Counted from the stretch's first letter, positions 7,111 through 61,196 are shown. The stretch: 64,000 nt of DNA from Alphaproteobacteria bacterium (GCA_041908065.1 JAYRGC010000050.1:21718-85717), one strand, 5' to 3'. A program made the numbers and translations. Notes: a model not told the origin generated them from the letters alone.

Positions 7111-7185
7111 GCCGTTGTAGCTCAGCGGTAGAGCAGGGCTTTCGTAAAGCCAAGGTCGGGGGTTCAAATCCCTCCAACGGCACCA
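7111..7185 (+). tRNA. tRNA-Thr (anticodon CGT); integration target of the downstream element
   Basis: Acceptor gccgttg/caacggc, anticodon loop ttCGTaa, T-loop ttcaaat, CCA encoded; its 3' 45 nt are repeated at 61151-61195. Confidence 0.8.
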
Positions 7186-7186
7186 T
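7141..7186 (+). repeat. attL: 46-bp core identical to 61151-61196 (3' half of tRNA-Thr)
   Basis: ttcgtaaagccaaggtcgggggttcaaatccctccaacggcaccat present at both positions. Confidence 0.8.
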
Positions 7187-7212
7187 TTTTATGTTGGAAT
7201 ATCAAAGCAATA

Positions 7213-7247
7213 GGCGGCGGCTTCGGCCCCGCCTTTTCGCTTTTTAG
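7213..7247 (+). terminator. Rho-independent terminator candidate downstream of tRNA-Thr
   Basis: GC hairpin ggcggcggcttcggccccgcc followed by ttttcgcttttt. Confidence 0.5.
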
Positions 7248-7376
7248 CCCTGATTTTAACTTTTGGAAGCAGGTTGGAAGCAATAGGGAGCAAGTCGGAG
7301 CGAAAAATAATGCAGTTCCGGCTACGCGGGAGCACGAAGAATCTGACCGAAAAAATGGAAGCCGCGCCTTTGGGCA

Positions 7377-7916
7377 TCAGCAGTTTCTGACCACACCTAC
7401 AACGCATCCCAAGACCGCGAAGTCGTCTGAGAGGGCGATGGAGATTGGCTTATAGGCTGAATTCTCCGGCATCAACGTAATCTTGCCGCTCTTGTCGCGA
7501 CGGAAGGTTTTGACGGTGGGCTGACCGCACACGTTGGCGACGACGATCTTGCCGTTCTTCGCTTCTGCCTTGCGGTCGACAATCAGGATATCGCCGTCGA
7601 ATATTCTGGCCCCCACCATGGAGTCGCCGGTGACCTTGAGCAGGAATGTGTCCGCCGGATGCTGCACCAGCAGGCTATTGAGATTGACGCGTCCGTCGAT
7701 ATGGTCGTCGGCGAAGCCTGGCTGACCTGCTGGGACGTGCGAGGTGTAGAGGGGCAGCCTGAACCCACGCGCCTCGATGAACGAGACAACGTCTTCATAA
7801 ATGCTCATCGGCACGCGCAGAGGCTTCGTAGCCTCTCCCCATGGGCCGGTGCCTTTCGGTCGGCCTGCGCCGGGGCGCACACCGCCGTGTGAGCTTTTTG
7901 CCTTGCCTTTCTTTGC
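7377..7916 (-). CDS. S24-family peptidase (UmuD / phage CI-LexA-like autocleaving repressor C-terminal domain)
   Basis: LPLYTSHVPAG...NLNSLLVQHPADTFLLKVTGDSMVGARIFDGDILIVDR...MPENSAYKPI closely parallels UmuD; start set at GTG 7916 preceded by GGAGG (alternatives ATG 8027 or 7808). Confidence 0.6.
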   Translation of the reverse strand, partial: AKKGKAKSSHGGVRPGAGRPKGTGPWGEATKPLRVPMSIYEDVVSFIEARGFRLPLYTSHVPAGQPGFADDHIDGRVNLNSLLVQHPADTFLLKVTGDSMVGARIFDGDILIVDRKAEAKNGKIVVANVCGQPTVKTFRRDKSGKITLMPENSAYKPISIALSDDFAVLGCVVGVVRNC

Positions 7917-8088
7917 GGGTTTCTTGACCACTGCATCGCCTCCTGAAAATTGCGAAACGAAAAGAGCGCGACAAGAAAAAACAGAAAATGACAACTTATG
8001 ACATTTACAAACGATTGATTTTTTCATTGTGCCAGATTACTGTGCGCTAATCAAGCCTGATTTTCAAGCCACCTTTCTGGAGGTCAAG

Positions 8089-9170: not shown

Positions 9171-9452
9171 ATGAACATCACACATCTCTCTCAATCCGAA
9201 CTGGCCACGCGGTGGCGCATCTCGATGCGAACGCTCGAACGTTGGCGCTGGCTGGGCGAAGGTCCGCGCTTCATCAAGCTCGGCGGGCGCGTCGTCTACC
9301 GCTTGTCCGACATCGAGGCGTTTGAGGCCGACAAGCTGCGCAGCAGCACGAGCCAAACCCAGCCCATCCCCGATTTCCGAAACGAATGCGCGGCTCCACC
9401 CCCCGCATCGGAACAATTTTCCCAACCGCTTCGCAGAAGGAGAGCATCATGA
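9171..9452 (+). CDS. AlpA/Xis-like helix-turn-helix DNA-binding protein
   Basis: LSQSELATRWRISMRTLERWRWLGEGPRFIKLGGRVVYRLSDIEAF is a typical AlpA/MerR-type excisionase-like HTH; the same domain occurs at the integrase C-terminus. Confidence 0.65.
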   Translation: MNITHLSQSELATRWRISMRTLERWRWLGEGPRFIKLGGRVVYRLSDIEAFEADKLRSSTSQTQPIPDFRNECAAPPPASEQFSQPLRRRRAS

Positions 9453-9943
9453 ACTTGCCCAACCGCATTACGTTTGACCAGATCAAGGACTGGCCACCAA
9501 GCAAAATCGCCACACTCTCCGTCGAGGAACTGGCATGTCTTGCTGGCGATATTGCCGATGCTAAAGCCCACGTCGCGGCTGTCGAAAACAAGCTGCGCGG
9601 TGGTCTTGATCTCAAATATGGTCACCGCGCTTCGACGCAGCGTTCGAGCCTCGGCAAAGACACAGGCATCGTGCGTTTTGAAGACGGTACCTTCACTGTT
9701 GTGGCAGAATTGCCGAAGCGGGTGAAGTGGGATCAAGCGCTTCTGGCCGTGGCCGTCAAAACCATCGCCGAGCAATGGCGTGACGATCCGGCGCAGTATG
9801 TCGGTACGGAATACAAGGTCTCGGAAGCTGCGTACACGGCATGGCCGGATGTTTTGCGCAAACTGTTCGAGCCCGCCCGCACGGTCGAGCATGGCAAACC
9901 CGTCTATCGGCTTGAAAAGCAGAACGATGGAGGCCAATCATGA
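9449..9943 (+). CDS. Hypothetical phage protein
   Basis: ATGA-overlapped start at 9449 after GAAGGAGAG; no recognisable domain. Confidence 0.4.
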   Translation: MNLPNRITFDQIKDWPPSKIATLSVEELACLAGDIADAKAHVAAVENKLRGGLDLKYGHRASTQRSSLGKDTGIVRFEDGTFTVVAELPKRVKWDQALLAVAVKTIAEQWRDDPAQYVGTEYKVSEAAYTAWPDVLRKLFEPARTVEHGKPVYRLEKQNDGGQS

Positions 9944-10815
9944 GCCTTCCCATCATCACCGCCGACGAGCGCATGGCCGAGAAGCGCGGCATCAAAGGCG
10001 TGATCTTCGGAAAATCCGGCATCGGCAAAACGTCGCTTCTGTGGACTCTCGATCCGGAAGAAACGCTGTTTTTCGATCTCGAGGCGGGCGATCTGGCCGT
10101 CGAGGGCTGGCAAGGCGACACGCTGCGCCCGCGCACATGGCCTGAATGCCGCGACTTCGCCGTGTTCATTGGCGGCCCCAATCCGGCCCTGCGCGACGAT
10201 CAGCCCTATAGCCAAGCGCATTACGCAGCGGTGTGCGAACGCTTCGGCGATCCCGCACAACTAGCGCGCTACACCACAGTCTTTATCGACAGCATCACGG
10301 TCGCGGGACGCCTTTGCCTTCAATGGTGCAAGGGTCAACCGCAGGCCTTCAGCGAAAAAACCGGCAAACCGGATTCTCGCGGCGCTTACGGTTTGCATGG
10401 GCAGGAGATGATCGCCTGGCTCACGCACCTGCAGCACACGCGCGGCAAGGACGTGTGGTTCGTCGGCATCCTCGACGAGAAGCTCGACGATTTCAACCGG
10501 CGCGTCTTTTTGCCGCAGATCGACGGCAGCAAAACAGGGCTCGAACTCCCCGGCATCGTCGATCAGGTCGTGACAATGGCCGAACTGCGCGACAGCGAAA
10601 ACAAACCCTACCGCGCCTTCGTCTGCCAGACGCTCAATCCCTTCGGCTTTCCGGCGAAGGATCGCAGCGGGCGGCTCGACGTGATCGAAAAGCCCCATCT
10701 CGGCGAACTCATGGCGAAAATCTCCGGCCCGATCAGCGCGACCGAAAAACGCCTGACCTATGAGCAGCCGCAACCTGCCGCCAAAGATTCCACCCCTACA
10801 ACCCAAGGAGCTTGA
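9940..10815 (+). CDS. Phage AAA/RecA-like P-loop ATPase (Sak4-like?)
   Basis: Walker A GKSGIGKTS near N-terminus; Walker B-like VFIDSI; position in replication/recombination module. Confidence 0.55.
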   Translation: MSLPIITADERMAEKRGIKGVIFGKSGIGKTSLLWTLDPEETLFFDLEAGDLAVEGWQGDTLRPRTWPECRDFAVFIGGPNPALRDDQPYSQAHYAAVCERFGDPAQLARYTTVFIDSITVAGRLCLQWCKGQPQAFSEKTGKPDSRGAYGLHGQEMIAWLTHLQHTRGKDVWFVGILDEKLDDFNRRVFLPQIDGSKTGLELPGIVDQVVTMAELRDSENKPYRAFVCQTLNPFGFPAKDRSGRLDVIEKPHLGELMAKISGPISATEKRLTYEQPQPAAKDSTPTTQGA

Positions 10816-10818
10816 ACC

Positions 10819-11421
10819 ATGTCTATCTGGAAAGATTACAATTCCGCCGCCGAGCAATCGAACTTCGATCCCATCCCCGCAGGCACGCTTGCCAAGGTGC
10901 GCATGACCATCAAGCCCGGCGGTTATGACGATCACAATCAAGGCTGGACGGGCGGCTACGCCACGCAGGGTCAAACAGGCGCGGTCTATCTCAACTGCGA
11001 GTTCGTTGTGATGGAGGGGCAATATGCCAAACGCAAGGTCTGGAGCCTGATTGGCCTCCACAGCCCCAAAGGCCCCGATTACGGCAACATCGGGCGTTCC
11101 TTCGTTAAAGGCATCCTGAACTCCGCGCGTGGGGTGAACCCGAAAGACGACAGCCCGAATGCGCAGGCGGCGCGACGCATCAATGGCCTCGGTGATCTCG
11201 ATGGCATCGTGTTCGTCGCCCGCATCGGCGTGCGCAAGGATCAAAACGGCTTGAATCGAAACGAGGTCAATCTCGCGATCACGCCCGAGCACAAGGACTA
11301 CGCGGCGTTGATGGGAGCCAATCCCAATATGCCGGTCGGGTCGGCTGCCGCGCCTATGCAAATTGGATCGCAACAGGCTGCCGCCCCGCATTCCAACAAC
11401 CGTCCCTCCTGGGCGCAGTAA
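10819..11421 (+). CDS. Hypothetical phage protein (possibly DUF669-like ssDNA-binding partner of the ATPase)
   Basis: Position between Sak4-like ATPase and helicase; no motif I can verify. Confidence 0.3.
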   Translation: MSIWKDYNSAAEQSNFDPIPAGTLAKVRMTIKPGGYDDHNQGWTGGYATQGQTGAVYLNCEFVVMEGQYAKRKVWSLIGLHSPKGPDYGNIGRSFVKGILNSARGVNPKDDSPNAQAARRINGLGDLDGIVFVARIGVRKDQNGLNRNEVNLAITPEHKDYAALMGANPNMPVGSAAAPMQIGSQQAAAPHSNNRPSWAQ

Positions 11422-11433
11422 GGAGGACGGGGA

Positions 11434-13098
11434 ATGTTGCTCAGGCCACGACAGCAGGAGTTTGTCACGCGTTCTCTCGGCGCGCTTGTCGCTCACGACA
11501 ACACGCTGGGGGTCGCACCGACGGGCGCGGGCAAGACCATCATGCTGTCAGCCGTCGCGGGCTGGATGCTCATGGAGGGCGCGGAGAAAATCTGCGTTCT
11601 CGCCCACCGCGACGAGCTGACGGCGCAGAACAGGGACAAGTTCGGGCGCGTCAATCCCGGCATCTCGACGTCCGTTGTCGATGCCAGCGAGAAGGACTGG
11701 TCAGGCAACGTCACCTTTGCCATGGTGCCGACGCTCTCGCGGCAAGCCAATCTCGATGGCATGCCCGCGCTCGACTTGCTGATCGTGGACGAGGCGCATC
11801 ACTGCGCAGCGGACAGCTACCGGCGCGTGATTGACAAGGCAAAGTCCCTCAATCCTTCCGTCAAACTCTTCGGCGTCACGGCCACGCCCAATCGCGGCGA
11901 CCGCAAGGGGTTGCGTGAGATATTCGACAACGTCGCCGACCAGATCGAGATCGGCGAATTGATTGCCTCCGGTCATCTCGTGCCGCCGCGCACATTCATT
12001 GTCGATGTCGGCGCGCAGGACAAACTGAGCCAAGTCAAAAAATCGGTCAGCGACTACGACATGGAGGCGGTCAACGCCATCATGAACACCGCGCCGATCA
12101 ATCAGGCCGTTGTCCGGCATTGGAAGGAGAAAGCGGGCGATCGCAAGACGGTCGTCTTCTGCTCGACCATTCATCACGCGCGATCCGTGCAGCAAGCGTT
12201 TCTGGAAGACGGCGTTGAAGCGGTTCTGGTCACAGGCGAGTTGAGCGATACCGACCGTGCCGAGGCACTGGCCGCGTTTGAAAAAGGCTCTGCTCGCGTC
12301 ATCGTGAACGTGGCGGTGCTGACAGAAGGCTGGGATTATCAGCCGACCTCCTGCGTCGTGCTTCTGCGACCCAGTTCCTACAAATGCACGATGATTCAGA
12401 TGGTCGGACGAGGCCTGCGCACAGTCGATCCCGCGCTTTATCCCGGCGTCATTAAAACCGACTGCATCGTGCTCGATTTTGGCACATCGTCCCTAATGCA
12501 CGGCACGCTGGAGACCGATGTTCAGCTGGAGTGCAAAAAAACGTCCGGCGCAGCGCCGACGAAAGATTGCCCGAAGTGCGAGGGCGTCGTTCCCCTCGGC
12601 GTTCACGAATGCCCGTTCTGCAATTACGAATGGGGCCATACCGACAAAGGAGCTTTGGCTGATTTCGTGATGACGGAAGTCGATCTTCTGAACGGCTCGC
12701 CGTTTCTCTGGTGCAATCTTTTCGGTGATGACCACTCGTTGATCGCCCAAGGTTTTGAGGCTTGGGCTGGCGTTTTCTTCTTCGGCGGGCGCTGGCACGC
12801 CCTGGGCGGCGGCAAGAACATGCCACCCGCGCTTTTGCGGGTCGGCGAGCGCCTTGTGTGCCTCGCGGCGGCCAACGACTGGCTTAACACCTATGAGACC
12901 GACGACACGGCCCATAAATCGAAGGGCTGGACACGGCAACCGGCCACGGACAAGCAGCTGCAATATCTGCCGCCGCAATACAGGACGGATTACAGCCTGA
13001 CGCGCTACCACGCCTCGGCGCTTATGACCTTCCAGTTTAATCGCGCCGCGATCCGCCGCCTCGTGTTCGACGCTGCCAAAGAGATGGAGGCGGCATGA
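11434..13098 (+). CDS. Superfamily-2 DEAD/DEAH-box helicase
   Basis: Motif I GVAPTGAGKT, motif II LLIVDEAHH, motif III-like VTATP; C-terminal extension. Confidence 0.75.
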   Translation: MLLRPRQQEFVTRSLGALVAHDNTLGVAPTGAGKTIMLSAVAGWMLMEGAEKICVLAHRDELTAQNRDKFGRVNPGISTSVVDASEKDWSGNVTFAMVPTLSRQANLDGMPALDLLIVDEAHHCAADSYRRVIDKAKSLNPSVKLFGVTATPNRGDRKGLREIFDNVADQIEIGELIASGHLVPPRTFIVDVGAQDKLSQVKKSVSDYDMEAVNAIMNTAPINQAVVRHWKEKAGDRKTVVFCSTIHHARSVQQAFLEDGVEAVLVTGELSDTDRAEALAAFEKGSARVIVNVAVLTEGWDYQPTSCVVLLRPSSYKCTMIQMVGRGLRTVDPALYPGVIKTDCIVLDFGTSSLMHGTLETDVQLECKKTSGAAPTKDCPKCEGVVPLGVHECPFCNYEWGHTDKGALADFVMTEVDLLNGSPFLWCNLFGDDHSLIAQGFEAWAGVFFFGGRWHALGGGKNMPPALLRVGERLVCLAAANDWLNTYETDDTAHKSKGWTRQPATDKQLQYLPPQYRTDYSLTRYHASALMTFQFNRAAIRRLVFDAAKEMEAA

Positions 13099-13295
13099 TC
13101 GACAAGCAACCCCATGAAGAAGCCGCTATGGCCGCCGTGCTGCCTTTGCTCGGCGAGATCGTCGCCGAGATCGGCATGGACAAACCCTTGTCCGCCTACA
13201 CCCGCGCGGAAGTCCTGACGCTGATCGAGGTCGTGGTCACGGCCTACCAGAACGCGCTCTTGCGTTTCACCCCGCAGGAAGGATGTCCGTTCTGA
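13095..13295 (+). CDS. Small hypothetical protein
   Basis: ORF translationally coupled between helicase and nuclease genes. Confidence 0.3.
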   Translation: MIDKQPHEEAAMAAVLPLLGEIVAEIGMDKPLSAYTRAEVLTLIEVVVTAYQNALLRFTPQEGCPF

Positions 13296-14071
13296 TGCTG
13301 GATTACAATCACAGGCCTTCGTTCGGCGACAATCTGAACGCGCTCATCGATGCCGGACTTGTCGCGCAAAATCGCACACAGCCGAAACGAACCTATCTCG
13401 GCGCATCGCGTCTTGGCGTCGCTTGCGAACGCGCGCTGCAATATGAATATGCCGACGCGCCGAAGGACGAGGACAAAGTGTTCGACGGCAGAATCCTGCG
13501 CATCTTCGCTATGGGACACATGCTGGAAGACATGGCTGCGGCGTGGCTCCGGCTGGCGGGCTTCGATCTTTACACAACGCGGCGCAACGATCCCCAAGCG
13601 GGTCAGTTTGGTTTTTCGGTCGCCAAGGAACGGCTGCAAGGCCATACGGACGGCATTATCAACGGCGCGCCTGCGGAGCTGGGTCTGTCCTTTCCCATGC
13701 TGTGGGAATGCAAGTCGCTCAACGACAAATCATGGAAGGATACGGTCAAGCGCGGCGTGAGCGTTTCCAAGCCGATCTATGCGGCGCAGATCGCGACCTA
13801 CCAAGCCTATATGGAAGGCCAGATCGCGGGCATCTCGCAAAATCCGGCGTTGTTTACCGCCATCAATAAGGACAACGCCGAACTGTATCACGAGCTGGTG
13901 CCGTTCGACGCGGGGCTTGCGCAGCGCATGAGCGATCGCGCCGTCAGGGTCATTGCCGCCACCGAAGCTGGCGATCTTCTCCCACGCATCACATCCGATC
14001 CTGCGTGGTTCGAGTGCAAAACATGCGCATGGCAGATGCGTTGCTGGAAAGAGGCCGCACGTGGGGCTTGA
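13295..14071 (+). CDS. PD-(D/E)XK-family nuclease (Cas4/RecB-like, C-terminal Cys pair)
   Basis: GHTDGI...LWECKS gives D...E.K catalytic motif; C-terminal WFECKTCAWQMRCW cysteines; ATG 13295 overlaps the upstream stop (ATGA) with an AGGAAGGA RBS. Confidence 0.55.
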   Translation: MLDYNHRPSFGDNLNALIDAGLVAQNRTQPKRTYLGASRLGVACERALQYEYADAPKDEDKVFDGRILRIFAMGHMLEDMAAAWLRLAGFDLYTTRRNDPQAGQFGFSVAKERLQGHTDGIINGAPAELGLSFPMLWECKSLNDKSWKDTVKRGVSVSKPIYAAQIATYQAYMEGQIAGISQNPALFTAINKDNAELYHELVPFDAGLAQRMSDRAVRVIAATEAGDLLPRITSDPAWFECKTCAWQMRCWKEAARGA

Positions 14072-16202
14072 TTACAACAACGCATCCGACCAACCGGAAC
14101 CTCGTTCGCCGCAGGAACTTGCCGCCGAAAGGGATCGTTTGCGCGAAGCGCTGCTGGCGAGGATTGAAGACGTTCTGTTCCATTTGTTCCCTGCAGGGCG
14201 CGTTCAGGGCAACAAGTTTTTTATCGGCAACGTGCGCGGCGATCCAGGCGACAGCATGGATGTCGATCTCGATGGCCCCAAAGCCGGCCTTTGGAGCGAT
14301 TTTGCTGCAAAAGGTGGCGGCGACATCTTTAGCCTCTGGGCAGCGGCCAAAGGGCTGGACGTTAAACGCGACTTTCCCAAAATCATCGCTGACATCTCCG
14401 CATGGCTTGGCGATGCGCCCGCGCAACAAATCGCGCCGCGATCCAAACCGGCAAAGGCAGCGCCCGTCATTGATACGCTCGGCCCCTATACGGCAAAATG
14501 GGACTATCACGATGCCGACGGCAAGCTGATCGCCTGCGTTTATCGCTACGACACGGCAGGAGGGAAAGAGTTTCGCCCGTGGGATGTCAAGACGCGCTCG
14601 CACAAAGCGCCGGAGCCGCGCCCGCTTTACAACATCCCCTGCATCCTCTCATCCGACATCGTCATTCTGGTCGAAGGCGAAAAGTGCGCGGACGCTTTGC
14701 TCGGAATGAACCAATGCGCCACCACGGCTATGAACGGCGCAAAGGCGCCTGTTGAGAAAACGGATTGGTCGCCGCTTAAGGGCAAACAGGTCTTCATCTG
14801 GCCGGACAATGACGAGCCGGGCAGCCAATATGCGGAAAACGCGGCGCAGGCGATCTTCGACGCAGGCGCGCGCTCGGTGCACATCATCCCGCCGCCGCAG
14901 GGCAAACCCAAGGGTTGGGACGCTGCCGATGCGTTCGACGAAGGTTTCGATTGCGAGGGGTTTATCCGCAGCGCCACGAATGCCTGTTTAAACGTTGCCG
15001 ACAATTACAGCGTGCGCGAGCTTTTGGCCGACACCAGCCCTATGCCGCCGGACATTATCGCGCCGCGCATCCTGACGCAGGGCGGTCTTCTGGTCTTCGG
15101 CGGCGCGCCCAAGGTCGGCAAAAGCGACTTCATCCTCTGCTGGCTCATTCACATGGCAGCGGGAGTTGAGTTTCTGGGCATGCGCCCGCCGCGCCGTTTG
15201 CGCATATTCATTCTGCAGGCCGAGATCCAATACCATTATTTGCGCGAGCGCATCCGCGAACTGCGCATCGATGCCACCATCGTCGAAGCCGCGCTCGACA
15301 ATCTCGTTATCACGCCCCAGTTGAAACTGGTGTTGAACGAGGCTGGTCTCGCCACGGTCGTCAACACCATCCGGCAGAGGTTCAGTGAAACGCCGCCCGA
15401 CATCATCGTCATCGACCCCTTGCGCAACGTGTTCGACGGCGGCGAAGGCGAAGCGAGCGAGAACGACAACAACGCCATGCTGTTTTTTCTGCAAAAACGG
15501 ATCGAAGCCCTGCGAGACGCCGTCAATCCCGACGCGGGCATCGTCATCGCGCATCACACCAGCAAGATGCCAAAAAAGCTGATCGAAGAAGATCCCTTCC
15601 GCGCGCTCAGTGGTGCAAACGCCCTGCGCGGTTATTACACGTCGGGGATGCTTCTATTCCGTCCCGATGAAACGCGCGGCGAACGCCATCTCTACTTCGA
15701 GCTGCGCAACGGCGAGGCCATTCCTTACAAGATCATCGACAAGGCGGGCGGGCAATGGATCGAGATCGACCGCCTTTATCAGCGCACGACGCAACAAGAG
15801 GCAGGAGCCAGGCAAGACGCTGAACGTGAGCGCAAGCACGACGTCATTCTCGAGATCATCGACGAACAAGCGCGGCTCGGCGAGGCGTTCACCATCAAGC
15901 AATTTGCCGAGACCTTTGAGGCCAAGGCGGGGCTCGGCAGCGGTCGCACCATCATGGAGCGCATCTCCGTGCTCGCCACCAAGGGCTTCATCAAATTCTT
16001 CCGCAACGTCGACGACTACGGGCTCAAACCGGCGGAGCGTTCCAAGTACGGCTACATGTGCATCAAGGGCATGGAGTTGCAGACCATGAAAGGCCTCGTG
16101 CGTGTTCTGCCCACCCATTACAAGGACGAGCACACCGGCTCGTTTCTTCCCGTCGAAAACCCCGACATCTGGATCAATCACGAAGGAGGAGAAAGGCCAT
16201 GA
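14061..16202 (+). CDS. Bifunctional phage DNA primase/helicase (Toprim domain plus RepA/DnaB-like P-loop ATPase)
   Basis: Toprim signature ILVEGEKCADAL...IWPDNDEPG; Walker A GGAPKVGKSDF; start set at GTG 14061 after AAGAGG. Confidence 0.65.
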   Translation: MGLDYNNASDQPEPRSPQELAAERDRLREALLARIEDVLFHLFPAGRVQGNKFFIGNVRGDPGDSMDVDLDGPKAGLWSDFAAKGGGDIFSLWAAAKGLDVKRDFPKIIADISAWLGDAPAQQIAPRSKPAKAAPVIDTLGPYTAKWDYHDADGKLIACVYRYDTAGGKEFRPWDVKTRSHKAPEPRPLYNIPCILSSDIVILVEGEKCADALLGMNQCATTAMNGAKAPVEKTDWSPLKGKQVFIWPDNDEPGSQYAENAAQAIFDAGARSVHIIPPPQGKPKGWDAADAFDEGFDCEGFIRSATNACLNVADNYSVRELLADTSPMPPDIIAPRILTQGGLLVFGGAPKVGKSDFILCWLIHMAAGVEFLGMRPPRRLRIFILQAEIQYHYLRERIRELRIDATIVEAALDNLVITPQLKLVLNEAGLATVVNTIRQRFSETPPDIIVIDPLRNVFDGGEGEASENDNNAMLFFLQKRIEALRDAVNPDAGIVIAHHTSKMPKKLIEEDPFRALSGANALRGYYTSGMLLFRPDETRGERHLYFELRNGEAIPYKIIDKAGGQWIEIDRLYQRTTQQEAGARQDAERERKHDVILEIIDEQARLGEAFTIKQFAETFEAKAGLGSGRTIMERISVLATKGFIKFFRNVDDYGLKPAERSKYGYMCIKGMELQTMKGLVRVLPTHYKDEHTGSFLPVENPDIWINHEGGERP

Positions 16203-44727: not shown

Positions 44728-44735
44728 ATGACGAC

Positions 44736-52106: not shown

Positions 52107-52146
52107 TTTATCCTCCTTAAAATTAACGATTCAGATTTTGTTACAC

Positions 52147-53667: not shown

Positions 53668-53932
53668 AACGCGCCTCCCGTTCATAATAGGAGCCGATGC
53701 CGTTCTCTCTGCACCGAAGCTCAATGACGGCCAGCGCATTGGCGAAGTGCCAAAGGGCAGCTACATCCTGATGGGCAAAGCCCAAGGCAAGAAGGTCTTG
53801 CTGCTCGCAGTTGCCGATCTCCAGTGTCATCTCAACGATTGTGTCAGCCATGCGAGCCACCGGTTCAAATCTCTTATCCGTTTCAGAGGTGATCTGATCG
53901 ACGATGCGGCGGTATTTGATTGCTTTAGCCAC
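53660..53932 (-). CDS. Hypothetical protein
   Basis: Overlap-coupled ORF within a minus-strand operon. Confidence 0.35.
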   Translation of the reverse strand: MAKAIKYRRIVDQITSETDKRFEPVARMADTIVEMTLEIGNCEQQDLLALGFAHQDVAALWHFANALAVIELRCRENGIGSYYEREARYA

Positions 53933-54332
53933 GGGGCGCCTCCCTGATTTCAGGGATGGAAGCCATTACGCGAACAACGCCTGTGTACGAAAGAGCCAAC
54001 GTATGACCGGTCGGGTCGCAACCGGCAGGGATCGTAATGGCCGTCTCATAACGGACAAACTGGATGCCTCGACGGGCAAAGGTCGTAACAAGCGTCTCCA
54101 TTGTCGATTTTTGCGGGATGTATACTCCGTGCTCGATGTTTTTGATCGTTTCCGCAGATATCTTTGCTTCTTTGGCAAGATCGCTACGTGACCAATCGAG
54201 CATGCTGCGCGCGGCACGCAGTTGCGAGGCCGTGAAAACGCAGGACATGATCGCGTACATGGGGCCGGACGGCGTACCGACGTCAGAATTGTTTTTGGCG
54301 TTCGTCGGATCAAAAGGCGGCTTGGAAATCAT
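53925..54332 (-). CDS. XRE-family HTH transcriptional regulator
   Basis: TASQLRAARSMLDWSRSDLAKEAKISAETIKNIEHG; GGGAGGA RBS, ATGA coupling to the upstream gene. Confidence 0.6.
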   Translation of the reverse strand: MISKPPFDPTNAKNNSDVGTPSGPMYAIMSCVFTASQLRAARSMLDWSRSDLAKEAKISAETIKNIEHGVYIPQKSTMETLVTTFARRGIQFVRYETAITIPAGCDPTGHTLALSYTGVVRVMASIPEIREAPRG

Positions 54333-54763
54333 TGGTATCCTCCCGCTTTTCTGTCCTCAATTTCCTCATCGAGATAACGCAGCACCAGATCGGCCAGTTT
54401 CTCTACTGAAGCTTCCGCATAGAACAGCCATTGTTTCCGACGCACCTTGCGCTGCTGGAGGCGGTCATAAAACTGGATGAGTGTTTCCCGATCTTCGGGC
54501 AAATGCGTCTGTTCACGCTTTTGCAAATCTTCGATGTGCATGTTGATCGCGGCGTCGATCTTCGTTGCCCACTTGTCTTCAGCAAGATCGATGGTCTGCT
54601 CAGGAAATGTTCGCTGAAGGTGAAAATCGCAAAACTCGTCCATGAGTCTGGCGAGGGCGATTATTTTATTAACGGACTCCTTCGATCTTCCGTTCTCGCC
54701 GTGCGTAATCATGCTCTGAAACGCCAGCATGAGGGCCATGCGCATTTGTTCGTCTTTAGTCAT
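54329..54763 (-). CDS. Hypothetical protein
   Basis: GGAGG RBS before ATG MTKDEQ. Confidence 0.4.
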   Translation of the reverse strand: MTKDEQMRMALMLAFQSMITHGENGRSKESVNKIIALARLMDEFCDFHLQRTFPEQTIDLAEDKWATKIDAAINMHIEDLQKREQTHLPEDRETLIQFYDRLQQRKVRRKQWLFYAEASVEKLADLVLRYLDEEIEDRKAGGYQ

Positions 54764-55052
54764 GACAGCCTCCGATAACCAAGGCCTGTGGCCAGAAGCG
54801 CGACAACAAACGCGCAAATCGCTCAATCGTATTCAATTCGCGTGTGGAAGGCTGAGGGAGCGGGGAATTGGCGAGATAAAGGAAAGTGATCCCATGCATC
54901 TTGACGGCCTGCGTAAACGCATCGCGCTCGGTATCAGATGCGAAATTGTCTTGAATGATCTCAAGGACAGTGGCCTCTGAACATTCTGGACGGGCCATCA
55001 GTGCCTGCGCCTTGGCGAGAGGCAATGCGATTGCTGTGTTGTCGTTCGTCAT
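54756..55052 (-). CDS. Hypothetical protein (start uncertain)
   Basis: ORF continuing the operon; weak RBS. Confidence 0.25.
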   Translation of the reverse strand: MTNDNTAIALPLAKAQALMARPECSEATVLEIIQDNFASDTERDAFTQAVKMHGITFLYLANSPLPQPSTRELNTIERFARLLSRFWPQALVIGGCHD

Positions 55053-55099
55053 AAAATGCTCACTGATGTCGTTGATCAATGAGGCGAGTATCAATATCT

Positions 55100-55215
55100 C
55101 CAACGCGTGATTCCACAGGAGAATTTGGACTTTTTGCCCATATTCAGGGGGGCAATTTGGACGAATTTCTAATTTGGACTTTTTGATCAAAATTTTGGAC
55201 TTTTTTCCTGATAAA
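55100..55215. promoter_or_regulatory. Four direct repeats of (A)ATTTGGAC(T)TTTT in an AT-rich intergenic region
   Basis: aatttggactttttg / caatttggacgaattt / taatttggactttttg / aaattttggactttttt. Confidence 0.5.
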
Positions 55216-55465
55216 AAATAGGCTGGCGGCGTGACCGCATGAAAGAATAGGCGATGATCGTTTGAAACGGCAATTTCAGAGAGAACACTCAACACGACAA
55301 AAAGCAATCGCCGTTTTTATCAGGCGATCCCTTTTTTCTTGGCACTTTTAATCAGATGAAAAGATGTGTGGGAGGATAGCGCGATATCCGATTGGTTCTT
55401 GGCAGCTCCATGCCTTGACAGGTACAGGCAAAACCGAGGTGCTTTAACTGCACAGAAAAGGCGGT

Positions 55466-56236
55466 TCAGTAGCAAGCCTGCCGTTCTGGTTCGTTGCAGC
55501 CATCCAGCTGTGGCATCCGATGGCTGAAATTCGGCGAAGCCCTTTTTGCGGTAGATGTCGTATATGGTTTGGCTTCAAGCCACCGTTTCTCGAAGTGTTC
55601 GAACGTCTTTTTCACCAGTTTAGGCGACTCGAATACCACGTAGACCGGTTGGCGAAAATTGAAGCGCATGTCTTGCTCTATGGCGAAAGTGACTTCATCG
55701 CCATAGGCAAAGTCGCAGGAGACACAGTTGACGGGCGGTTCGTGATACACCCTGACTTCGAAAGAAGGGCCTCTCGGAAGATATATGTTCTGATCCGCCA
55801 GCAGGCACTTTACAGAGACGACTTTGCTAAGGTTTTGCAGGCGGTCGAAATTCGTCAATCCATTCCGCCCCGTGACCTTCGTTAACATGCCTTGGCTTCC
55901 GATCCTGCACACAACACCTGAAGCTTTGTCCTTGAGCATCTTTTCGATGTTGTCGAAAAAGCGGTCGCAGCTGCCAAGCCCACGGAAATCCTTAACGCCA
56001 TCTGAGCGCGGTCTGACGCTGCCGTCCGGCAGGCATTCGACGCCATGAGCGTCAAAGACGCTTTGTATGTCCAGGATGATGGACTCGCGAACGGGCGCAT
56101 CGTCTTCGAATGTGCAAATGGTACCGCGCGCGACATTCGCTTCGTGTGCCAGCTTTTCACGAGACCACTTCAACAATGATCTCGCCATTCTGCTTTGTGC
56201 GCCTGTTATGAGATAAACTTCGGTCATGGTTGTCAT
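55466..56236 (-). CDS. XRE-like HTH domain protein with ~180-aa C-terminal domain (paralog of 57355-58035)
   Basis: N-terminal ITGAQSRMARSLLKWSREKLAHEANVARGTI; C-terminal region alignable to the 57355 protein. Confidence 0.55.
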   Translation of the reverse strand: MTTMTEVYLITGAQSRMARSLLKWSREKLAHEANVARGTICTFEDDAPVRESIILDIQSVFDAHGVECLPDGSVRPRSDGVKDFRGLGSCDRFFDNIEKMLKDKASGVVCRIGSQGMLTKVTGRNGLTNFDRLQNLSKVVSVKCLLADQNIYLPRGPSFEVRVYHEPPVNCVSCDFAYGDEVTFAIEQDMRFNFRQPVYVVFESPKLVKKTFEHFEKRWLEAKPYTTSTAKRASPNFSHRMPQLDGCNEPERQACY

Positions 56237-56241
56237 TCGCC

Positions 56242-56535
56242 TTAGTTAATTTGTTCTTGCGGGTTTAGGTCGACCAAATAGCGTATGGCGGCATCGTAAT
56301 GTCGACGTTGGATGTTGCAGACATCATTCACGCCGAAATGACTGGCAAGCATAGACAGAACCACTTCGTCGCTAACTTTGTGCGTGTGCGCGACATAGGC
56401 GACCACGGCGGCAATCGATATTAATTCCCGCTTCGCAAGCGAGGCTTCGATCTTAGCCTGTTCCGCGAAGTATTCTTCCGCTGGCTTGGCTTCTTCGATG
56501 GCCTTGCGAATAAGTTGCATGCGATCTGTCGACAT
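56242..56535 (-). CDS. Small conserved protein, member A of a second triplicated family
   Basis: ELISIAAVVAYVAHTHKVSDEVVLSMLASHFGVNDV...AIRYLVDL aligns with 56557-56889 and 59055-59345. Confidence 0.55.
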   Translation of the reverse strand: MSTDRMQLIRKAIEEAKPAEEYFAEQAKIEASLAKRELISIAAVVAYVAHTHKVSDEVVLSMLASHFGVNDVCNIQRRHYDAAIRYLVDLNPQEQIN

Positions 56536-56556
56536 GGAGAAATGGCTCCTTAAAAA

Positions 56557-56889
56557 TCAGTTCATAATGTTGCTTATCTTCAAATCGACCAGATACTCGA
56601 TGGCGTTCTGGTAAAGCCGCGCAGGCAGAGCCTTCACTTTGTCAATGCCGTAATGGGCGGTCAGAATCTCGCAGACGGTCGTTTCATCCACTTGCTGGTT
56701 ATAGGCTACATAGGCGATCATCCCCGCTAGAGCCTTAAGCTCGATATCGTTGACGAGGGCTTCGTGAGCCTTGCGCAGTGCGACAAGACCGGATGTCAAA
56801 AGGCGCAGGTCGCCGGAAGAAAGGTCTTTGCCTTCCGTGGCCTCGTTGAAGGCCTCTTCGGCGGGGTTCATGGGCTGGGGCTTGTTCAT
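56557..56889 (-). CDS. Small conserved protein, member B of the second triplicated family
   Basis: ELKALAGMIAYVAYNQQVDETTVCEILTAHYGIDKV...AIEYLVDL. Confidence 0.55.
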   Translation of the reverse strand: MNKPQPMNPAEEAFNEATEGKDLSSGDLRLLTSGLVALRKAHEALVNDIELKALAGMIAYVAYNQQVDETTVCEILTAHYGIDKVKALPARLYQNAIEYLVDLKISNIMN

Positions 56890-56901
56890 GTCGCTTGCTC
56901 C

Positions 56902-57144
56902 TTAAACCGTGGCCGTCGGGGCGGGCGAAGGGCAAACAACGGCTTGATAGTCGTTGGTGGCCTTAATAAAGTGCTCCCAGCGTTCTTCGAGCATCATGGG
57001 GCGGGGGTGCTTGACACTGTTATAGCGTTCCCAAGTGTCCACAATCTGCTGGATCAGGCTTTCGCTGTGTTTTTTGGTAATCGTGTCAAAATCGAGCATT
57101 AATCCCTCCCTTTGAAAAACCTTACAAAAAGCCTGTTTGGCCAC
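56902..57144 (-). CDS. Hypothetical protein
   Basis: 80-aa ORF upstream in the same operon. Confidence 0.35.
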   Translation of the reverse strand: MAKQAFCKVFQREGLMLDFDTITKKHSESLIQQIVDTWERYNSVKHPRPMMLEERWEHFIKATNDYQAVVCPSPAPTATV

Positions 57145-57354
57145 CTGATTTTGAAACCGTAACGGATTTTGGGCTTGAAAGCAATTAAAATCTACTGGGT
57201 AGGCAAAGAATATCTACATGAAAGCATTATTTTGGTTGAAATTGTTATGAAACATACTTAGAGTTGGTTTGAAACGCACTTTTAGCGAAAAAACTTTAAG
57301 CTTTTTATTAACCAAAAGTCGTGTATAGTATCAGAAAACATCTACGGAGTAGCA

Positions 57355-58035
57355 TTGCAAATGATTACAGCGAGACAAATTCGAGCGGCTAGAGGCCTTT
57401 TGGGATGGGACGCCGTGGTTCTTGCCCGAAAAACAGGGCTGACCAAGGAAACAATCTCGCGGATTGAGATAGAACAAGTGCGCCCGCAAGAGCGTACATT
57501 ACTCAAGATTCTGCGTGTTTTCAACGAGGCGGGTGTAGAGTTCACCCCCAATACAGGCGTGCAACTTAAGCCGCAAAATGTCGAGGTTCTCGAGGGAACA
57601 ACGGGGTTCCTTCGTTTTTATGATTTCGTTTATAACCACTTAAACCAGTACGGGGGCCTCGTTTGCGTGAGCGGCGTCAACGAAAAGTTGTTCGTCAAAT
57701 ATCAAGGTGACTTTGCAGACGTTCATATGAACAGAATGGCAGATCTAGTTAAACGCCGCGAAGATCTTATGATGCGAATTTTGGTAGAAGAAGGCGATTA
57801 TAATTTCGTAGCGTCCTCATACGCTCAATACAGGTGGCAAGCTAAAGCGTATTTTTCTCCTGCCCCCTTCTATGTTTTTGGAGATAACCTTGCTCTCATC
57901 TCTTTCGCGCATGAGCCGTCGCCATTAGTTATTTTTATCAAGTCAGCAAGTTTAGCAGACGCTTACCGGCACGCTTTCGAACTTGCTTGGGCGCAATCTA
58001 TTGAGCCGCCGTCGAGAGAGGAGAGCGCGAAATGA
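57355..58035 (+). CDS. XRE-like HTH regulator with C-terminal domain, translationally coupled to the EgtD-like methyltransferase
   Basis: ITARQIRAARGLLGWDAVVLARKTGLTKETISRIE; 4-nt overlap with the next gene. Confidence 0.6.
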   Translation: MQMITARQIRAARGLLGWDAVVLARKTGLTKETISRIEIEQVRPQERTLLKILRVFNEAGVEFTPNTGVQLKPQNVEVLEGTTGFLRFYDFVYNHLNQYGGLVCVSGVNEKLFVKYQGDFADVHMNRMADLVKRREDLMMRILVEEGDYNFVASSYAQYRWQAKAYFSPAPFYVFGDNLALISFAHEPSPLVIFIKSASLADAYRHAFELAWAQSIEPPSREESAK

Positions 58036-59051
58036 GCTTTCTTGGCGGAAGTATAGACTTTTTTACAGGAACGCGATCTTCTCACATGGGTTCGTACCAG
58101 TATGTAGAACATGCTGGCACTCGAAACGGCAAAAGCATGTCCGGTGCGAAGTTGTGGGCTGAGATTGAAGCTGAAGAGCTAAAGGCAACTGAAACAAATT
58201 TGTTCAGTGCCGAAGAACGAATTTTGCGAAGTGTGGCAAAGGATGTTGGTGCTTACTTTCCAGATTGTTCCCCGATCCTTGAAATGGGAACAGGCACGCC
58301 AAATGCGTTTAAAAAGAAAACACTTCTTATTATGATGGCACTTCGAAGTACGGAATATATCTGCGTGGATGAATCTAGCGAATTTTTGAAGGGCCTAATC
58401 TCAAATAAGGCTCTTTCCAGATTTAAGGTTAGGCCGATTCTGGACGATTTCTTCGAAGGGGATAAACTCTATTTTGATGATCCTGAACGAGATGCTCTTA
58501 TTTGTATGTTTGGCAGCACCATCGGTAATATCGTCGCTCCTTTGGGCGATGCACCGCCAAGAGACGCCCTGATTGCACATTTGTCCATGATAGCGCAGAC
58601 AATCAACAAAGGTGGTCTTTTGGTATCATTCGACGCAGATATGAATGGGGAAAAGGTTGCAGCCTTTTATGCAAGACAGGCCCTTTTTCAGTTAAATACA
58701 TTCTTTCGTATGGCGGTGGAGTTACCGATAAAGGGAGACTTTGATCCCTATGCATTTGAGTACAAGCCGATGTGGTTTGCTCAATCTGGGACGCTAGCAC
58801 ATATGGCTATCGTCGCGCGCGATATGTCCTTCGAACTTGGCGGAAAGAGTATCTCTTTGGTTGCTGGACAAAAGTTGCACATGAAAAACTCATTCAGGTT
58901 CTCTCCTGCCTTCTTCTCCGATTGTTGTGAGAGTGCTGGGTTTGAGATTCTTAAAACGTGGAGAGATCCGTCTTTGACCAATGTTTATCTTTTGAAAAAG
59001 AAAACCGTTGCCGTTTCGCAAACTTCTGCAATCGTGAAGGCTGCATGTTAA
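58032..59051 (+). CDS. EgtD-family (Methyltransf_33, histidine N-alpha-methyltransferase-like) SAM-dependent methyltransferase
   Basis: ILEMGTGTPNAFKKKTLL (cf. EgtD LVELGSGTSEKTRMLL), YICVDESSEFL, and LICMFGSTIGNIVAP (cf. VVFLGSTIGNLTP); C-terminal KNSFRFSP...AGFEILKTWRDP. Confidence 0.65.
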   Translation: MSFLGGSIDFFTGTRSSHMGSYQYVEHAGTRNGKSMSGAKLWAEIEAEELKATETNLFSAEERILRSVAKDVGAYFPDCSPILEMGTGTPNAFKKKTLLIMMALRSTEYICVDESSEFLKGLISNKALSRFKVRPILDDFFEGDKLYFDDPERDALICMFGSTIGNIVAPLGDAPPRDALIAHLSMIAQTINKGGLLVSFDADMNGEKVAAFYARQALFQLNTFFRMAVELPIKGDFDPYAFEYKPMWFAQSGTLAHMAIVARDMSFELGGKSISLVAGQKLHMKNSFRFSPAFFSDCCESAGFEILKTWRDPSLTNVYLLKKKTVAVSQTSAIVKAAC

Positions 59052-59054
59052 AAC

Positions 59055-59345
59055 TTAGTGCTTCGCCGCCGCGCTTGATCCAGCAAGGCCGATGAGAAAA
59101 TTCATGACGGTCTCGAAGTCTTTGGCCGGCAGATAACGTAAATCGCTAACGCCGAAGACCCTTTGTGTGATCTCGAGGATTTCCGCTACGTCTGTCTTCA
59201 TTTCATGGGCGGCGTAGAATACGAGAGCGGTGAGTTTCTGTGCCTCTCTGAAGTTCAGCGCTCTGGAAAGGTCGTCGTCTCCACAGGGAGCAGCCTTCAG
59301 TTTGAAGGGGAGAACGTTTGAGGCAGTATCTTCGCTCATGGTCAA
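59055..59345 (-). CDS. Small conserved protein, member C of the second triplicated family
   Basis: EAQKLTALVFYAAHEMKTDVAEILEITQRVFGVSDL...VMNFLIGL. Confidence 0.5.
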   Translation of the reverse strand: MTMSEDTASNVLPFKLKAAPCGDDDLSRALNFREAQKLTALVFYAAHEMKTDVAEILEITQRVFGVSDLRYLPAKDFETVMNFLIGLAGSSAAAKH

Positions 59346-59457
59346 AATCCTTTTCTTAAAAGCCCCTAAAGCAATGCCCTATTATATCGTTAACGCAGCC
59401 CAAATTCAAAAGAATGCAGCGGTAAAAATCAGGCAAAACTTGATAAATGGTACGATT

Positions 59458-60957
59458 TTACGCTTGACTCACGACAAATGAAGCGGGCGACCCCGCGTTA
59501 ACCATGCCGTATGGCTGATCCTGAATGGGGGCGTCTTTCCCCACAAACTGATCCAAATCCTCCTTTGTGTATCGCACGCTGTTGCCGATTTTGACGAAGC
59601 TGGGGCCGCATTTGCGCCAGCGCCAGTTTTCGAGGAGGCGAGGATTGACGTTCAGGTATGTGGCGGCCTGTGCAGCGGTCATGAAACGTGGCAAGGCCCC
59701 ATTTGCCGTGAGCTGAAGTTTTTCCGCCAACGGTGATGCAACAGGCGGATCAACACACACTGCCGTTCCGTCGATGGTGATGCTTTCGCCTGGCTTGGGC
59801 AGGGCCAAAAGCCCGCCCAGTTCGTCCGTGATTTTGCTGGCCGCTTCGAGTACTGGATTGATGGCCAGATGGGCATAGCGGGCCGTCGTTTGCGTCTGCG
59901 TGTGGCCAAGCAACCGCCCGATCATCGGCAGGCTCATGCCCATCGCCACGGCGTTTGACGCAAAGGTATGCCGAAGGTCGTGAATGCGGACGTCCTCAAT
60001 CCCCGCCCATTTGCGGATATGCCGCCATGTCGTTTGCAGGTCGTTGATCGGTTTGTCGACGTGGTGATCCGAGCAAATCAGATAAGGATTTTCCGGTTTG
60101 CGTGGTAGGTGGCGCAAGAGGTCGATGGCCGTCCGTCCCAGATGAATGAACTTCGGCCCCGTTTTGGAATCCGGCAGACGGATTATGCCTCGGTCAAGAT
60201 GGACGTATTCCCATTTGCAATCCCTAATTTCCCCGAGACGCGCGCCGGTAAGGATTAAGAGCCGAAAGGCAGCAATGGCATAAGGCGAACTCAAACCCGC
60301 TTCCTCGGCCATGCGAAGCGTATCGCCGAGGCGGCGCATTTCGTCGGCGGAGAGGAAGCGCTCGCGCTTGTTCTCCTTGTACTTCTTGACATGACGGCAC
60401 GGGTTCGAGTTTTCCGGGCGCAGGCCCCAATCCTCCGCCGTGTTGAACATTTTGGAGAGCAGCGTCAGCGCGTGGTTCGCGCTGGAGGGAATCTTGTTCA
60501 TGCCGTGATGCAACTGCAGGATATGGGCGCGTGTGACTTCGGTAATCTTTAAGCGACCGAGGGAAGGCACAATCTGGCTTTTGATGATCCCTTCGTAACG
60601 GAGACGCGTACTGGGCTTCAGATGCACGTCCATGTGGAGTTTCTGGAAGCGTTCGCAAAACTCTTTCATATCGGGACAGGCCGCGAAGGCGTGCCGATCT
60701 TCCATCGGATCCTGTCCATCGCGGATAGAGGCGAGGGTCTTGAGCGCCTTGTCTCGCGCTTGTTCCGCCGTGATCGCTGGAAAGTAGCCCAGCGTCATGC
60801 GGCGGGTGCGGGTGCCAACGCGGTATTGCAGGATGAGGTTCTTCCTGCCCGAGGTCAGGACGCGAAGGCCGAAGCCGGACAGTTCGTCGTCGAAGACAAA
60901 ATAGTCTTTGCTCCGAACCTCCGCCGCCTCGATCACTCTTTTCGTCAACCGCGTCAT
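59458..60957 (-). CDS. int: Tyrosine-type site-specific integrase with fused C-terminal AlpA/Xis-like HTH domain
   Basis: Catalytic-domain motifs HDLRHTFAS...LLGHTQTQTTARYAHL; extra C-terminal ~110 aa containing MTAAQAATYLNVNPRLLENWRWRKCGPSFVKIGNSVRYTKEDLDQFV; start ATG 60957. Confidence 0.8.
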   Translation of the reverse strand: MTRLTKRVIEAAEVRSKDYFVFDDELSGFGLRVLTSGRKNLILQYRVGTRTRRMTLGYFPAITAEQARDKALKTLASIRDGQDPMEDRHAFAACPDMKEFCERFQKLHMDVHLKPSTRLRYEGIIKSQIVPSLGRLKITEVTRAHILQLHHGMNKIPSSANHALTLLSKMFNTAEDWGLRPENSNPCRHVKKYKENKRERFLSADEMRRLGDTLRMAEEAGLSSPYAIAAFRLLILTGARLGEIRDCKWEYVHLDRGIIRLPDSKTGPKFIHLGRTAIDLLRHLPRKPENPYLICSDHHVDKPINDLQTTWRHIRKWAGIEDVRIHDLRHTFASNAVAMGMSLPMIGRLLGHTQTQTTARYAHLAINPVLEAASKITDELGGLLALPKPGESITIDGTAVCVDPPVASPLAEKLQLTANGALPRFMTAAQAATYLNVNPRLLENWRWRKCGPSFVKIGNSVRYTKEDLDQFVGKDAPIQDQPYGMVNAGSPASFVVSQA

Positions 60958-61150
60958 GCTTTCCTGTCTCAGCTTGTGTCCTCGATCTCGCGCCGTTTTT
61001 TGGAAGCACTGTGGAAGCAAGAGGCTTCAAAACGGGGCGAAAACCTGATAGGCTCATGAAGCTGAAAAGGCCGCCGGAAGTCAACTAACGTATTGAAATA
61101 TCGTAGTAAATAGAAACGCTTCGCAATCCTTCAAAAACGGTTATATTGGG

Positions 61151-61196
61151 TTCGTAAAGCCAAGGTCGGGGGTTCAAATCCCTCCAACGGCACCAT
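61151..61196 (+). repeat. attR: 46-bp duplicate of the tRNA-Thr 3' half
   Basis: Identical to 7141-7186. Confidence 0.8.

Follow-up and report, generated by a model that had tools for sequence, protein, structure and literature searches.

The DNA analysed here is a stretch of 64,000 nucleotides from Alphaproteobacteria bacterium (GCA_041908065.1 JAYRGC010000050.1:21718-85717), which at its full length is called the window; all positions are counted from its first letter. Within the window lies an insert that is bounded by two copies of an attachment (att) core. The 54,010 bp at 7187-61196 are probably one integrated temperate siphovirus, inserted into a tRNA-Thr(CGT) gene by a tyrosine integrase. 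The integration event itself is of a very well-known kind; what is unusual is the cargo, a phosphonate gene cluster of 14 kb. An earlier note on this DNA had described a 54-kb prophage in tRNA-Thr(CGT), and every feature that a tRNA-integrated prophage is expected to show in the sequence was found.

Three tRNA genes were detected in the window with ARAGORN, one of which is an intact tRNA-Thr(CGT) gene at 7111-7185 on the plus strand. A repeat search of the window revealed an exact direct repeat of 46 nt (family D4) that comprises 7141-7186, the attL core, and 61151-61196, the attR core, with a start-to-start distance of 54,010 bp. The earlier note had stated that the 3' 45 nt of the tRNA plus one base are repeated exactly at the second position, and this was borne out by an identity of 46/46. 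Reading of the sequence placed the start of the repeat at tRNA position 31, with which the 7-nt anticodon loop (TTCGTAA) begins, and its end at the encoded CCA followed by one further T. The sole further member of the repeat family is an unrelated tRNA-Arg with 67% identity. When both strands were searched for 25-nt and 21-nt sub-patterns of the repeat, with at most 3 mismatches allowed, each was found only in the copies at 7141 and 61151, and 100 dinucleotide-preserving shuffles yielded 0 matches. This implies that the repeat is beyond chance, and with the same settings no third att copy, not even a degenerate one, was present in the window. As no tRNA was called by ARAGORN at 61151, the right copy is a 3' fragment only; like the tRNA it is on the plus strand, and it lies downstream of it. 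The full-length tRNA-Thr is identical in 13 unrelated metagenome contigs, which indicates an ordinary, conserved tRNA gene at the left end. After integration, the last 45 nt of this gene would stem from the phage. Inside the prophage, 30 nt past the tRNA, a terminator-like GC hairpin with a T-run (7216-7243, plus strand) matches the consensus and probably terminates the regenerated tRNA.

According to the Islander criteria, a tRNA-integrated island has a regenerated tRNA gene with a 3' fragment of it further downstream, oriented alike, and encloses an integrase gene (PMC4383910). The window has the intact tRNA, the displaced downstream 3' fragment in the same orientation and a tyrosine integrase between them, and shares with islands and prophages of this class also the identity from the anticodon loop to the 3' end. 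Anticodon-centred sites make up about half of such islands (2083 of 3919; PMC4383910). The empty attB junction was reconstructed as GGTTCAAATCCCTCCAACGGCACCA and then TCTGGCCTTATATTGCGGCG, preceded by the complete 5' half of the tRNA, and the circular attP junction as AAAACGGTTATATTGGG, the 46-nt core and then TTTTATGTTGGAATATCAAAGC.

The integrase is encoded on the minus strand by an open reading frame (ORF) at 59458-61020. Its start is likely the ATG at 60957, in agreement with the N-termini of its homologues, which gives a protein of 499 aa (59458-60957). Pfam searches and homologue alignment assigned to it an Arm-DNA-bind_3 domain (PF13356, 61 bits), a SAM-like domain (Phage_int_SAM_3), a catalytic domain (PF00589 Phage_integrase, 87 bits, covering profile positions 2-169 of 172) and, after the latter at residues ~425-472, a C-terminal HTH_17 domain of the excisionase/AlpA type. 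The motifs GARLGE, HDLRH, LGH and ARYAHL, with the Arg, His-x-x-Arg, His and Tyr, were seen; the catalytic Lys was not located in the protein. No other integrase was present among the scanned proteins, and the protein is the sole recombinase found. Its stop codon is at 59458, its start codon is 193 bp from 61151 and transcription is directed inward. The integrase gene had previously been described as ending about 190 bp inside the repeat: the distance is right, but it is the start and not the end of this minus-strand gene that faces the repeat. The protein is 63% identical to the integrase of a phage contig (L083, see below) and 36% identical to that of a genomic island (L213). The C-terminal extension is common to the L083 integrase (508-aa ORF; 499-aa alignment) and is absent from the 421-aa integrase of the L213 island.

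The motif TGGAAGCA has five matches in the 64-kb window. Four of these form two tandem pairs on the plus strand, one per arm, with an equal spacing of 11 bp and equal orientation. One pair starts at 7264 and 7275 to the right of the left core (P' arm, 7264-7282) and the other at 61001 and 61012 to the left of the right core (P arm, 61001-61019). They are likely the sites for the N-terminal arm-binding domain of the integrase. Because matching pairs on both arms are expected for the two halves of one attP, they tie the ends of the whole 54-kb unit together. A candidate excisionase of 93 aa is encoded in the rightward early operon (9171-9452, plus strand; Pfam HTH_17, 33 bits with a cut-off of 27).

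Core host genes are present directly outside both repeat copies, and at both of them the gene content flips sharply from host to phage. The left flank contains the genes of MutL, an M23 peptidase, the phosphoglycerate mutase iPGM and a methyltransferase; the right flank contains those of TerC, the GTPase Der and tRNA-Pro. Both host flanks also contain short intergenic palindromes that belong to one repeat family, at 944-1200 and 62037-62179 (e.g. TACGGCCAAAGGCCGTCAT; GGCGGCGAAGCAATCCAG...CTGGATTGCTTCGCCGC). Core genes and one palindrome family on either side indicate that both flanks are parts of one host chromosome. The lineage of this alphaproteobacterial host is poorly sampled: in a collection of 5.8 billion proteins the closest other Der protein was 68% identical. 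An exact look-up of TerC gave no match, and that of Der gave one contig of 1.6 kb only; the same Der gene was found in SRR26835459. In a scan of genome contigs for TerC 80 loci were obtained with at most 62% identity, and none of the 54 that were checked had a tRNA-Thr beside the TerC gene. Homologues of Der were at most 69% identical, and neither of the two genomic contexts that were inspected was syntenic. The att core had no match in viral contigs, and its 13 matches in metagenomes were all full tRNAs in unrelated contexts. That an empty site was not found in these searches is explained by the poor sampling of the host, and we infer the mobility of the 54-kb unit from its anatomy only.

In agreement with the earlier statement that everything between the repeats is phage or cargo, a full phage gene set was found there together with a low-GC cargo. 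The part at 7.4-44.1 kb looks like a complete lambda-like siphovirus genome, to judge from its genes. It has homologues in many IMG/VR phage contigs, all its large phage ORFs are uninterrupted and a lambda-like marker set is present: PF05876 and PF20454 (gpA-type large terminase, TerL), the PF05136 portal, PF01343 S49 (gpC-like), the PF03864 gpE-type capsid, the PF09718 tape measure and the PF00717 repressor. The genes at 44.0-59.4 kb, of lower GC, have no homologue in any related viral contig, including those that reach 6-10 kb past the endolysin; the unit was thus rightly called a mosaic. When 18.3-43.0 kb was compared by megablast with 50,697 phage records, one methylase gene was the only match, and a search with the tRNA against phage records returned phage tRNA genes only, which is uninformative on attP.

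The leftmost phage gene encodes a CI/LexA-like repressor with a Peptidase_S24 autocleavage domain (7377-8027, minus strand; Pfam E = 6e-33), which lies 190 bp from the left core and is 52% identical to the integrase-adjacent repressor of L083. All further phage genes given here are on the plus strand. The replication module (9940-16202), which has homologues in related viral contigs, encodes an AAA_24 ATPase (9940-10815), a superfamily 2 (SF2) helicase (11434-13098) and a Toprim/AAA_25 primase-helicase (13953-16202), as found by domain searches. At 17786-18123, between a DUF6362 gene and the gene of a 459-aa protein, an array of 10-bp-periodic ACATCATC-type repeats is present (family D1, 12 overlapping copies of 41 nt). 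The array is iteron-like, and from its structure it is possibly a replication origin or a protein-binding array. A domain search identified a ParB-N domain fused to an N6/N4 DNA methyltransferase at 19703-20926; this fused form is conserved among 42 related viral loci, and at the nucleotide level its gene is 74% identical to the methylase gene of Acidithiobacillus phage AcaML1. The packaging and head module (21814-28921), again on the basis of domain searches, comprises a small terminase candidate (21814-22332), the gpA-type TerL (22329-24218), which is 77-91% identical in IMG/VR contigs, a lambda-family portal (24421-25959), the S49 protease (25956-27164) and the major capsid protein E (27905-28921). 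In the tail module (30434-40418) the tail tube (30434-31372) and the tape measure (32066-34606) were found by domain searches, and a Phage-tail_3/Rcc01698-like host-specificity protein (36493-39696) and a tail-fibre-like protein (39693-40418) by profile searches and IMG/VR homologues. The lysis region (43157-44212) encodes an endolysin (43157-43819; phrog_873, E = 3e-67; 80% identical in IMG/VR) and, as read from its translation, a spanin-like lipoprotein with an LSAC lipobox (43979-44212). Three tandem paralogues of about 100 aa are encoded upstream of the endolysin (42088-43078), and a broken fourth copy is found at the phage/cargo junction (44422-44958), where the spanin-like lipoprotein gene also has an incomplete copy with 77% identity. 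At 44735-44958 on the plus strand, just before the drop in GC, partial duplicates of 42623-42691 and 44009-44139 (families D2 and D3) mark the junction. They are likely a recombination scar.

The closest overall relative that was found is the contig IMGVR_UViG_3300047678_000666 (L083 and L167), in which the integrase is 63%, the repressor 52%, the tail genes 66-78% and the endolysin 72% identical to those of the window. The values of integrase and repressor thus fall in line with the 52-78% of the other genes of this contig. It resembles the window in having a low-GC cargo past the lysis genes and a tRNA beside and divergent from the integrase. It differs in that the integrase gene (int) adjoins cI, the tRNA is tRNA-Met(CAT) in full length, and the cargo consists of a Z1-domain protein and a DNA methylase without a phosphonate cluster. 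The tRNA-Met(CAT) of this contig is at 69-143 and the integrase, at 338-1831, lies on its 5' side; no significant repeat, including one of the tRNA-Met, was present between the two ends of the contig. A low-GC block starts about 1 kb past the endolysin in three relatives (L165, 11039-18482; L166, 11500-20578; L167, 11376-16384), and this position is therefore a cargo hotspot of the phage lineage. In these relatives a type III restriction-modification pair with AAA_13, the Z1-domain protein with the DNA methylase, and an ATPase that resembles a type IV secretion system (T4SS) coupling protein were found as post-lysis cargo. The position looks like a hotspot of defence genes in the related phages.

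The intact tRNA is at the left end of the prophage next to the S24 repressor and the integrase is at the right end, as had been noted. No basis was found for regarding the location of the integrase at the distal end as an anomaly, as the Islander criteria are silent on it and the L213 island has the same geometry. In this unrelated island (L213 and L215) the integrase is about 145 bp from a 3' tRNA fragment and divergent from it, as in the window. In L083 the 63%-identical integrase is beside the repressor and the full tRNA-Met, so that its int-att cassette is inverted with respect to the window. A tRNA-Thr(CGT) identical to that of the window was also observed in the metagenome contig L224 (5-1078), where an integrase homologue of 25% identity comes directly after it. 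This tRNA is therefore also used by other elements, in which the integrase is tRNA-proximal. These comparisons imply that both arrangements occur and that a distal integrase is not remarkable. With attP located between int and cI, integration separates the two genes. P4-type islands have the integrase adjoining the intact tRNA, and phage P22 integrates in thrW, a tRNA-Thr(CGU) gene of Salmonella. P22 is likewise a temperate lambdoid phage; its target is the same isoacceptor, and its identity block is about as long. It differs in its unrelated host, its tail and its gene order, with int and xis adjacent at the prophage end beside the immunity region. The Islander paper gives no rule on which end of an island holds the integrase (PMC4383910); int lies beside the intact tRNA in L224 and at the fragment end, transcribed inward, in the window, and nothing essential in the window differs from the Islander class.

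The cargo, at about 45.0-59.05 kb, has a GC content of 0.45-0.52 compared with about 0.60. As a mobile phosphonate gene cluster it was delimited at 45047-59051 by GC, Pfam, NCBIfam and synteny, and no convincing inverted repeats were found that flank 44-61 kb. Its genes are on the minus strand from 45047 to 56889. The enzymes of phosphonate metabolism begin with a PEP (phosphoenolpyruvate)-mutase-like enzyme (51222-52106), which reached the Pfam threshold (PEP_mutase, 162 bits) and scored 257 bits in NCBIfam PEP_mutase, where the cut-off is 320. Its gene overlaps by 4 bp (51222-51225) with that of a phosphonopyruvate decarboxylase (50071-51225; TIGR03297, 337.5 bits, cut-off 312.5). A PhnY-like aldehyde dehydrogenase (46380-47834) has phosphonoacetaldehyde dehydrogenase as its best match; the score for this family, TIGR03250, is just below the cut-off (621 versus 635.65 bits), and the next family scores 427 bits. 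The motif EDK-X5-NS is specific for PEP mutase (Ppm or PepM), and a published inventory was filtered with it (PMC8942020). It is not matched by the cargo mutase, which reads EDQVFPKRNS (EDQ-X5-NS). EDQ is found in the whole clade P0122-P0131 (alignment A2; 56-61% identical), canonical PepMs in the same alignment having EDK, and the other active-site positions are invariant in the alignment.

Between the decarboxylase and dehydrogenase genes, an aspartate carbamoyltransferase (ATCase) is encoded at 49026-50057 (TIGR00670, 278 bits, cut-off 237). Its STRTR, HPTQ, RLQ and HPLPR align with PyrB structures (best 6ypo, E = 4e-68), and the motifs for carbamoyl phosphate and aspartate are retained. 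An assignment as ornithine carbamoyltransferase was considered and rejected, as aspartate-specific models score far higher. The adjacent gene (47839-49017) encodes a P-loop protein of 392 aa without a family match, for which Pfam, NCBIfam and PHROGs gave nothing useful. In its AlphaFold model, with a mean predicted local distance difference test score (pLDDT) of 86.6, the C-terminal half is a SIMIBI P-loop domain that resembles dethiobiotin synthetase, the ligase domain of CTP synthase, HypB and FtsY. The resemblance is generic; the model is compatible with an ATP-dependent ligase without being proof of it. Pfam furthermore identified an HD protein (45047-45721), an S-adenosylmethionine (SAM) methyltransferase (45684-46340), a HAD hydrolase with a weak match to pyrimidine 5'-nucleotidase (52147-52920) and a NUDIX protein (53155-53739). 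These are followed by conserved small ORFs (53660-56889) that are colinear with those of L212 and L213, and on the plus strand by an HTH_3 regulator (57355-58035) and an EgtD-like methyltransferase (58032-59051; Pfam Methyltransf_33).

Mutases that are 59-64% identical occur in the same gene order in other assemblies. L213 and L215 contain, in this order, a tRNA fragment, integrase, Methyltransf_33, HTH_3, small ORFs, mutase, decarboxylase, carbamoyltransferase, a protein of the 392-aa type, aldehyde dehydrogenase and methyltransferase, which is colinear with the window from 61.0 to 45.7 kb. In L212 the module is located beside core genes within an element with relaxase, NikA-like and AlpA genes, and L214 has only the first three genes of the module in common. 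As judged from these gene orders, the cargo module is also mobile in non-phage integrative elements. All four contigs of the L213 type end before the far side of the island. The contigs L213, L215 and L216 end about 300 bp past the methyltransferase of the phosphonate module, and L217 breaks inside the cluster. Contig ends at that place suggest a repeat or a polymorphic junction. Among the 2.9 million contigs of IMG/VR only 9 have a PepM relative, most of them with a decarboxylase and none with the PhnY-like dehydrogenase or ATCase. These nine contigs (L231-L239) are 5-164 kb long, one coming from a giant-virus metagenome-assembled genome, and contain canonical PepM relatives, mostly with the decarboxylase alongside. 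The phosphonate clusters of these viral contigs are not of the type found in the window.

Several points weigh against one integrated temperate siphovirus. The promoter and terminator calls are consensus matches only. An empty attB, an attP circle or a sister genome was not found in the genome, viral and metagenome searches described above. The unit is 54.0 kb long and the contigs of the closest TerL relatives, which are of unknown completeness, are at most 46.7 kb. Finally, a non-phage island has the cargo and an adjacent integrase in colinear order, so that a composite origin is conceivable. The lack of an empty-site comparison is also all that could be put forward for the explanation that a tRNA fragment occurs at the right copy by coincidence and that the region has no att sites at its ends. 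This is effectively refuted by the identity of 46/46, the absence of matches in the shuffles and the start exactly at the anticodon loop, as well as by the position of the fragment downstream of the tRNA in the same orientation, the integrase 193 bp away, the arm motifs that match on both sides and the sharp switch from host to phage genes at both copies. A composite origin would mean that a phosphonate island (att fragment, int, Methyltransf_33, HTH and cluster; ~45.0-61.2 kb) and a phage (7.2-45 kb) arrived in the same tRNA by separate events or were fused, the sole surviving integrase being that of the island and the phage being dependent on it. The Arm-DNA-bind_3 integrase, tRNA fragment and cargo that L213 and L215 have in the order of the window, the L212 module in its element with relaxase, NikA-like and AlpA genes, and the likely recombination scar at 44735-44958 are in line with such an origin. 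In an Islander tandem array, however, every member brings an integrase and a tRNA fragment of its own (PMC4383910), and in the window neither a third att copy (at most 3 mismatches) nor a second integrase was found, so that this definition does not apply. Moreover, the integrase is 63% identical to that of the phage contig, where it is beside cI, versus 36% to that of the island, and it has its C-terminal extension in common with the phage integrase only. The matching arm motifs flank the whole 54-kb unit, indicating that its present ends are those of one attP, and related phages hold other cargo at the same position. Taken together, a composite origin is distinctly unlikely.

It is doubtful, though less so, that the unit is a cryptic or defective prophage, in which the att sites and genes look intact and no particles are made, for example because the 14-kb cargo exceeds the head capacity, and which would then be a fixed island. 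The length of 54.0 kb versus the contigs of at most 46.7 kb would fit with this, since the gpA-type terminase implies cos packaging of unit-length genomes and lambda cos packaging tolerates only a limited excess of genome length. A pseudogene-like remnant at 44.4-44.96 kb points in the same direction. On the other hand, the att copies are 100% identical, the large phage ORFs are uninterrupted, and contigs with related tails reach 51.6 and 54.1 kb, their completeness being unknown.

If the unit is one integrated temperate siphovirus, as is preferred here, the integrase would have recombined the attP of the phage, with a core of the tRNA 3' 45 nt plus one base, with tRNA-Thr(CGT). Strand exchange probably took place in the 7-nt anticodon loop. 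The core copy of the phage would restore the left tRNA and bring the terminator-like hairpin, and the original 3' part of the host would be left as the right fragment. Once excised and circularized, the element would consist of the lysis genes followed by the cargo, int (leftward), the P arm, the core, the P' arm, cI (leftward) and the early genes (rightward), and it follows from this order that integration puts int and cI at opposite ends. Upon induction the S24 repressor would cleave itself and the early operon, including the HTH_17 excisionase candidate, would be switched on, after which Int and Xis would excise the element. Replication, packaging by the gpA-type terminase and lysis would then follow. 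With the 14-kb phosphonate cluster in the post-lysis hotspot, lysogeny would give the host a metabolite derived from phosphonoacetate.

The combination of a PEP-mutase-like enzyme, a decarboxylase and a PhnY-like dehydrogenase predicts phosphonoacetate, and judging from these genes the cargo probably makes a phosphonoacetate-derived compound. N-phosphonoacetyl-L-aspartate (PALA) is a classical synthetic bisubstrate inhibitor of ATCase. Phosphonoacetate is the rarer branch in published inventories (PMC8942020). Clusters of this branch (Ppm, Ppd, PhnY-like; Li and Horsman, 2022, PMC8942020) share with the window the overlapping PepM-like and Ppd genes and the PhnY-like dehydrogenase; they differ in having the canonical EDK-X5-NS, versus EDQ-X5-NS in the PepM clade of the window. 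The phosphonate cluster of flavophos holds a spare copy of the target enzyme, lumazine synthase, as resistance gene (PMC12871164). A duplicate housekeeping enzyme in the cluster is what it has in common with the cargo; there it is lumazine synthase and here ATCase. From this precedent and the action of PALA on ATCase, a PALA-like product was proposed. The cargo would then be a mobile cluster for a phosphonoacetate-derived, PALA-like inhibitor of ATCase, formed via PEP, phosphonopyruvate, phosphonoacetaldehyde and phosphonoacetate. The dethiobiotin-synthetase-like P-loop protein (47839-49017) would join an amino acid to phosphonoacetate, the producer would be protected by its extra ATCase, and lysogeny would make the host an antimetabolite producer. 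This hypothesis is unlikely to hold. Alternatively, the carbamoyltransferase could be biosynthetic, or the product could be unrelated to ATCase. A link of such clusters to ATCase or PALA was not found in the literature searched.

The SPbeta prophage reportedly carries the sublancin cluster, lysogeny making its host a producer. The likeness is that of an accessory region of a temperate phage that encodes the production of a secondary metabolite. Known biosynthetic clusters of prophages are mostly for ribosomal peptides or bacteriocins, and that of the window is a phosphonate pathway.

From a lineage of alphaproteobacteria that is poorly sampled, the window provides an integrase together with candidate arm sites and an att pair whose position is precisely mapped. 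The EDQ mutase lacks the motif that is used as filter in genome mining, which implies that such clusters may be under-counted in motif-filtered surveys. A spare ATCase beside a pathway that should end in phosphonoacetate leads to a testable hypothesis on the target. A phosphonate cluster that moves between a temperate phage and non-phage integrative elements represents a route by which phosphonate production spreads and that is absent from the literature searched.

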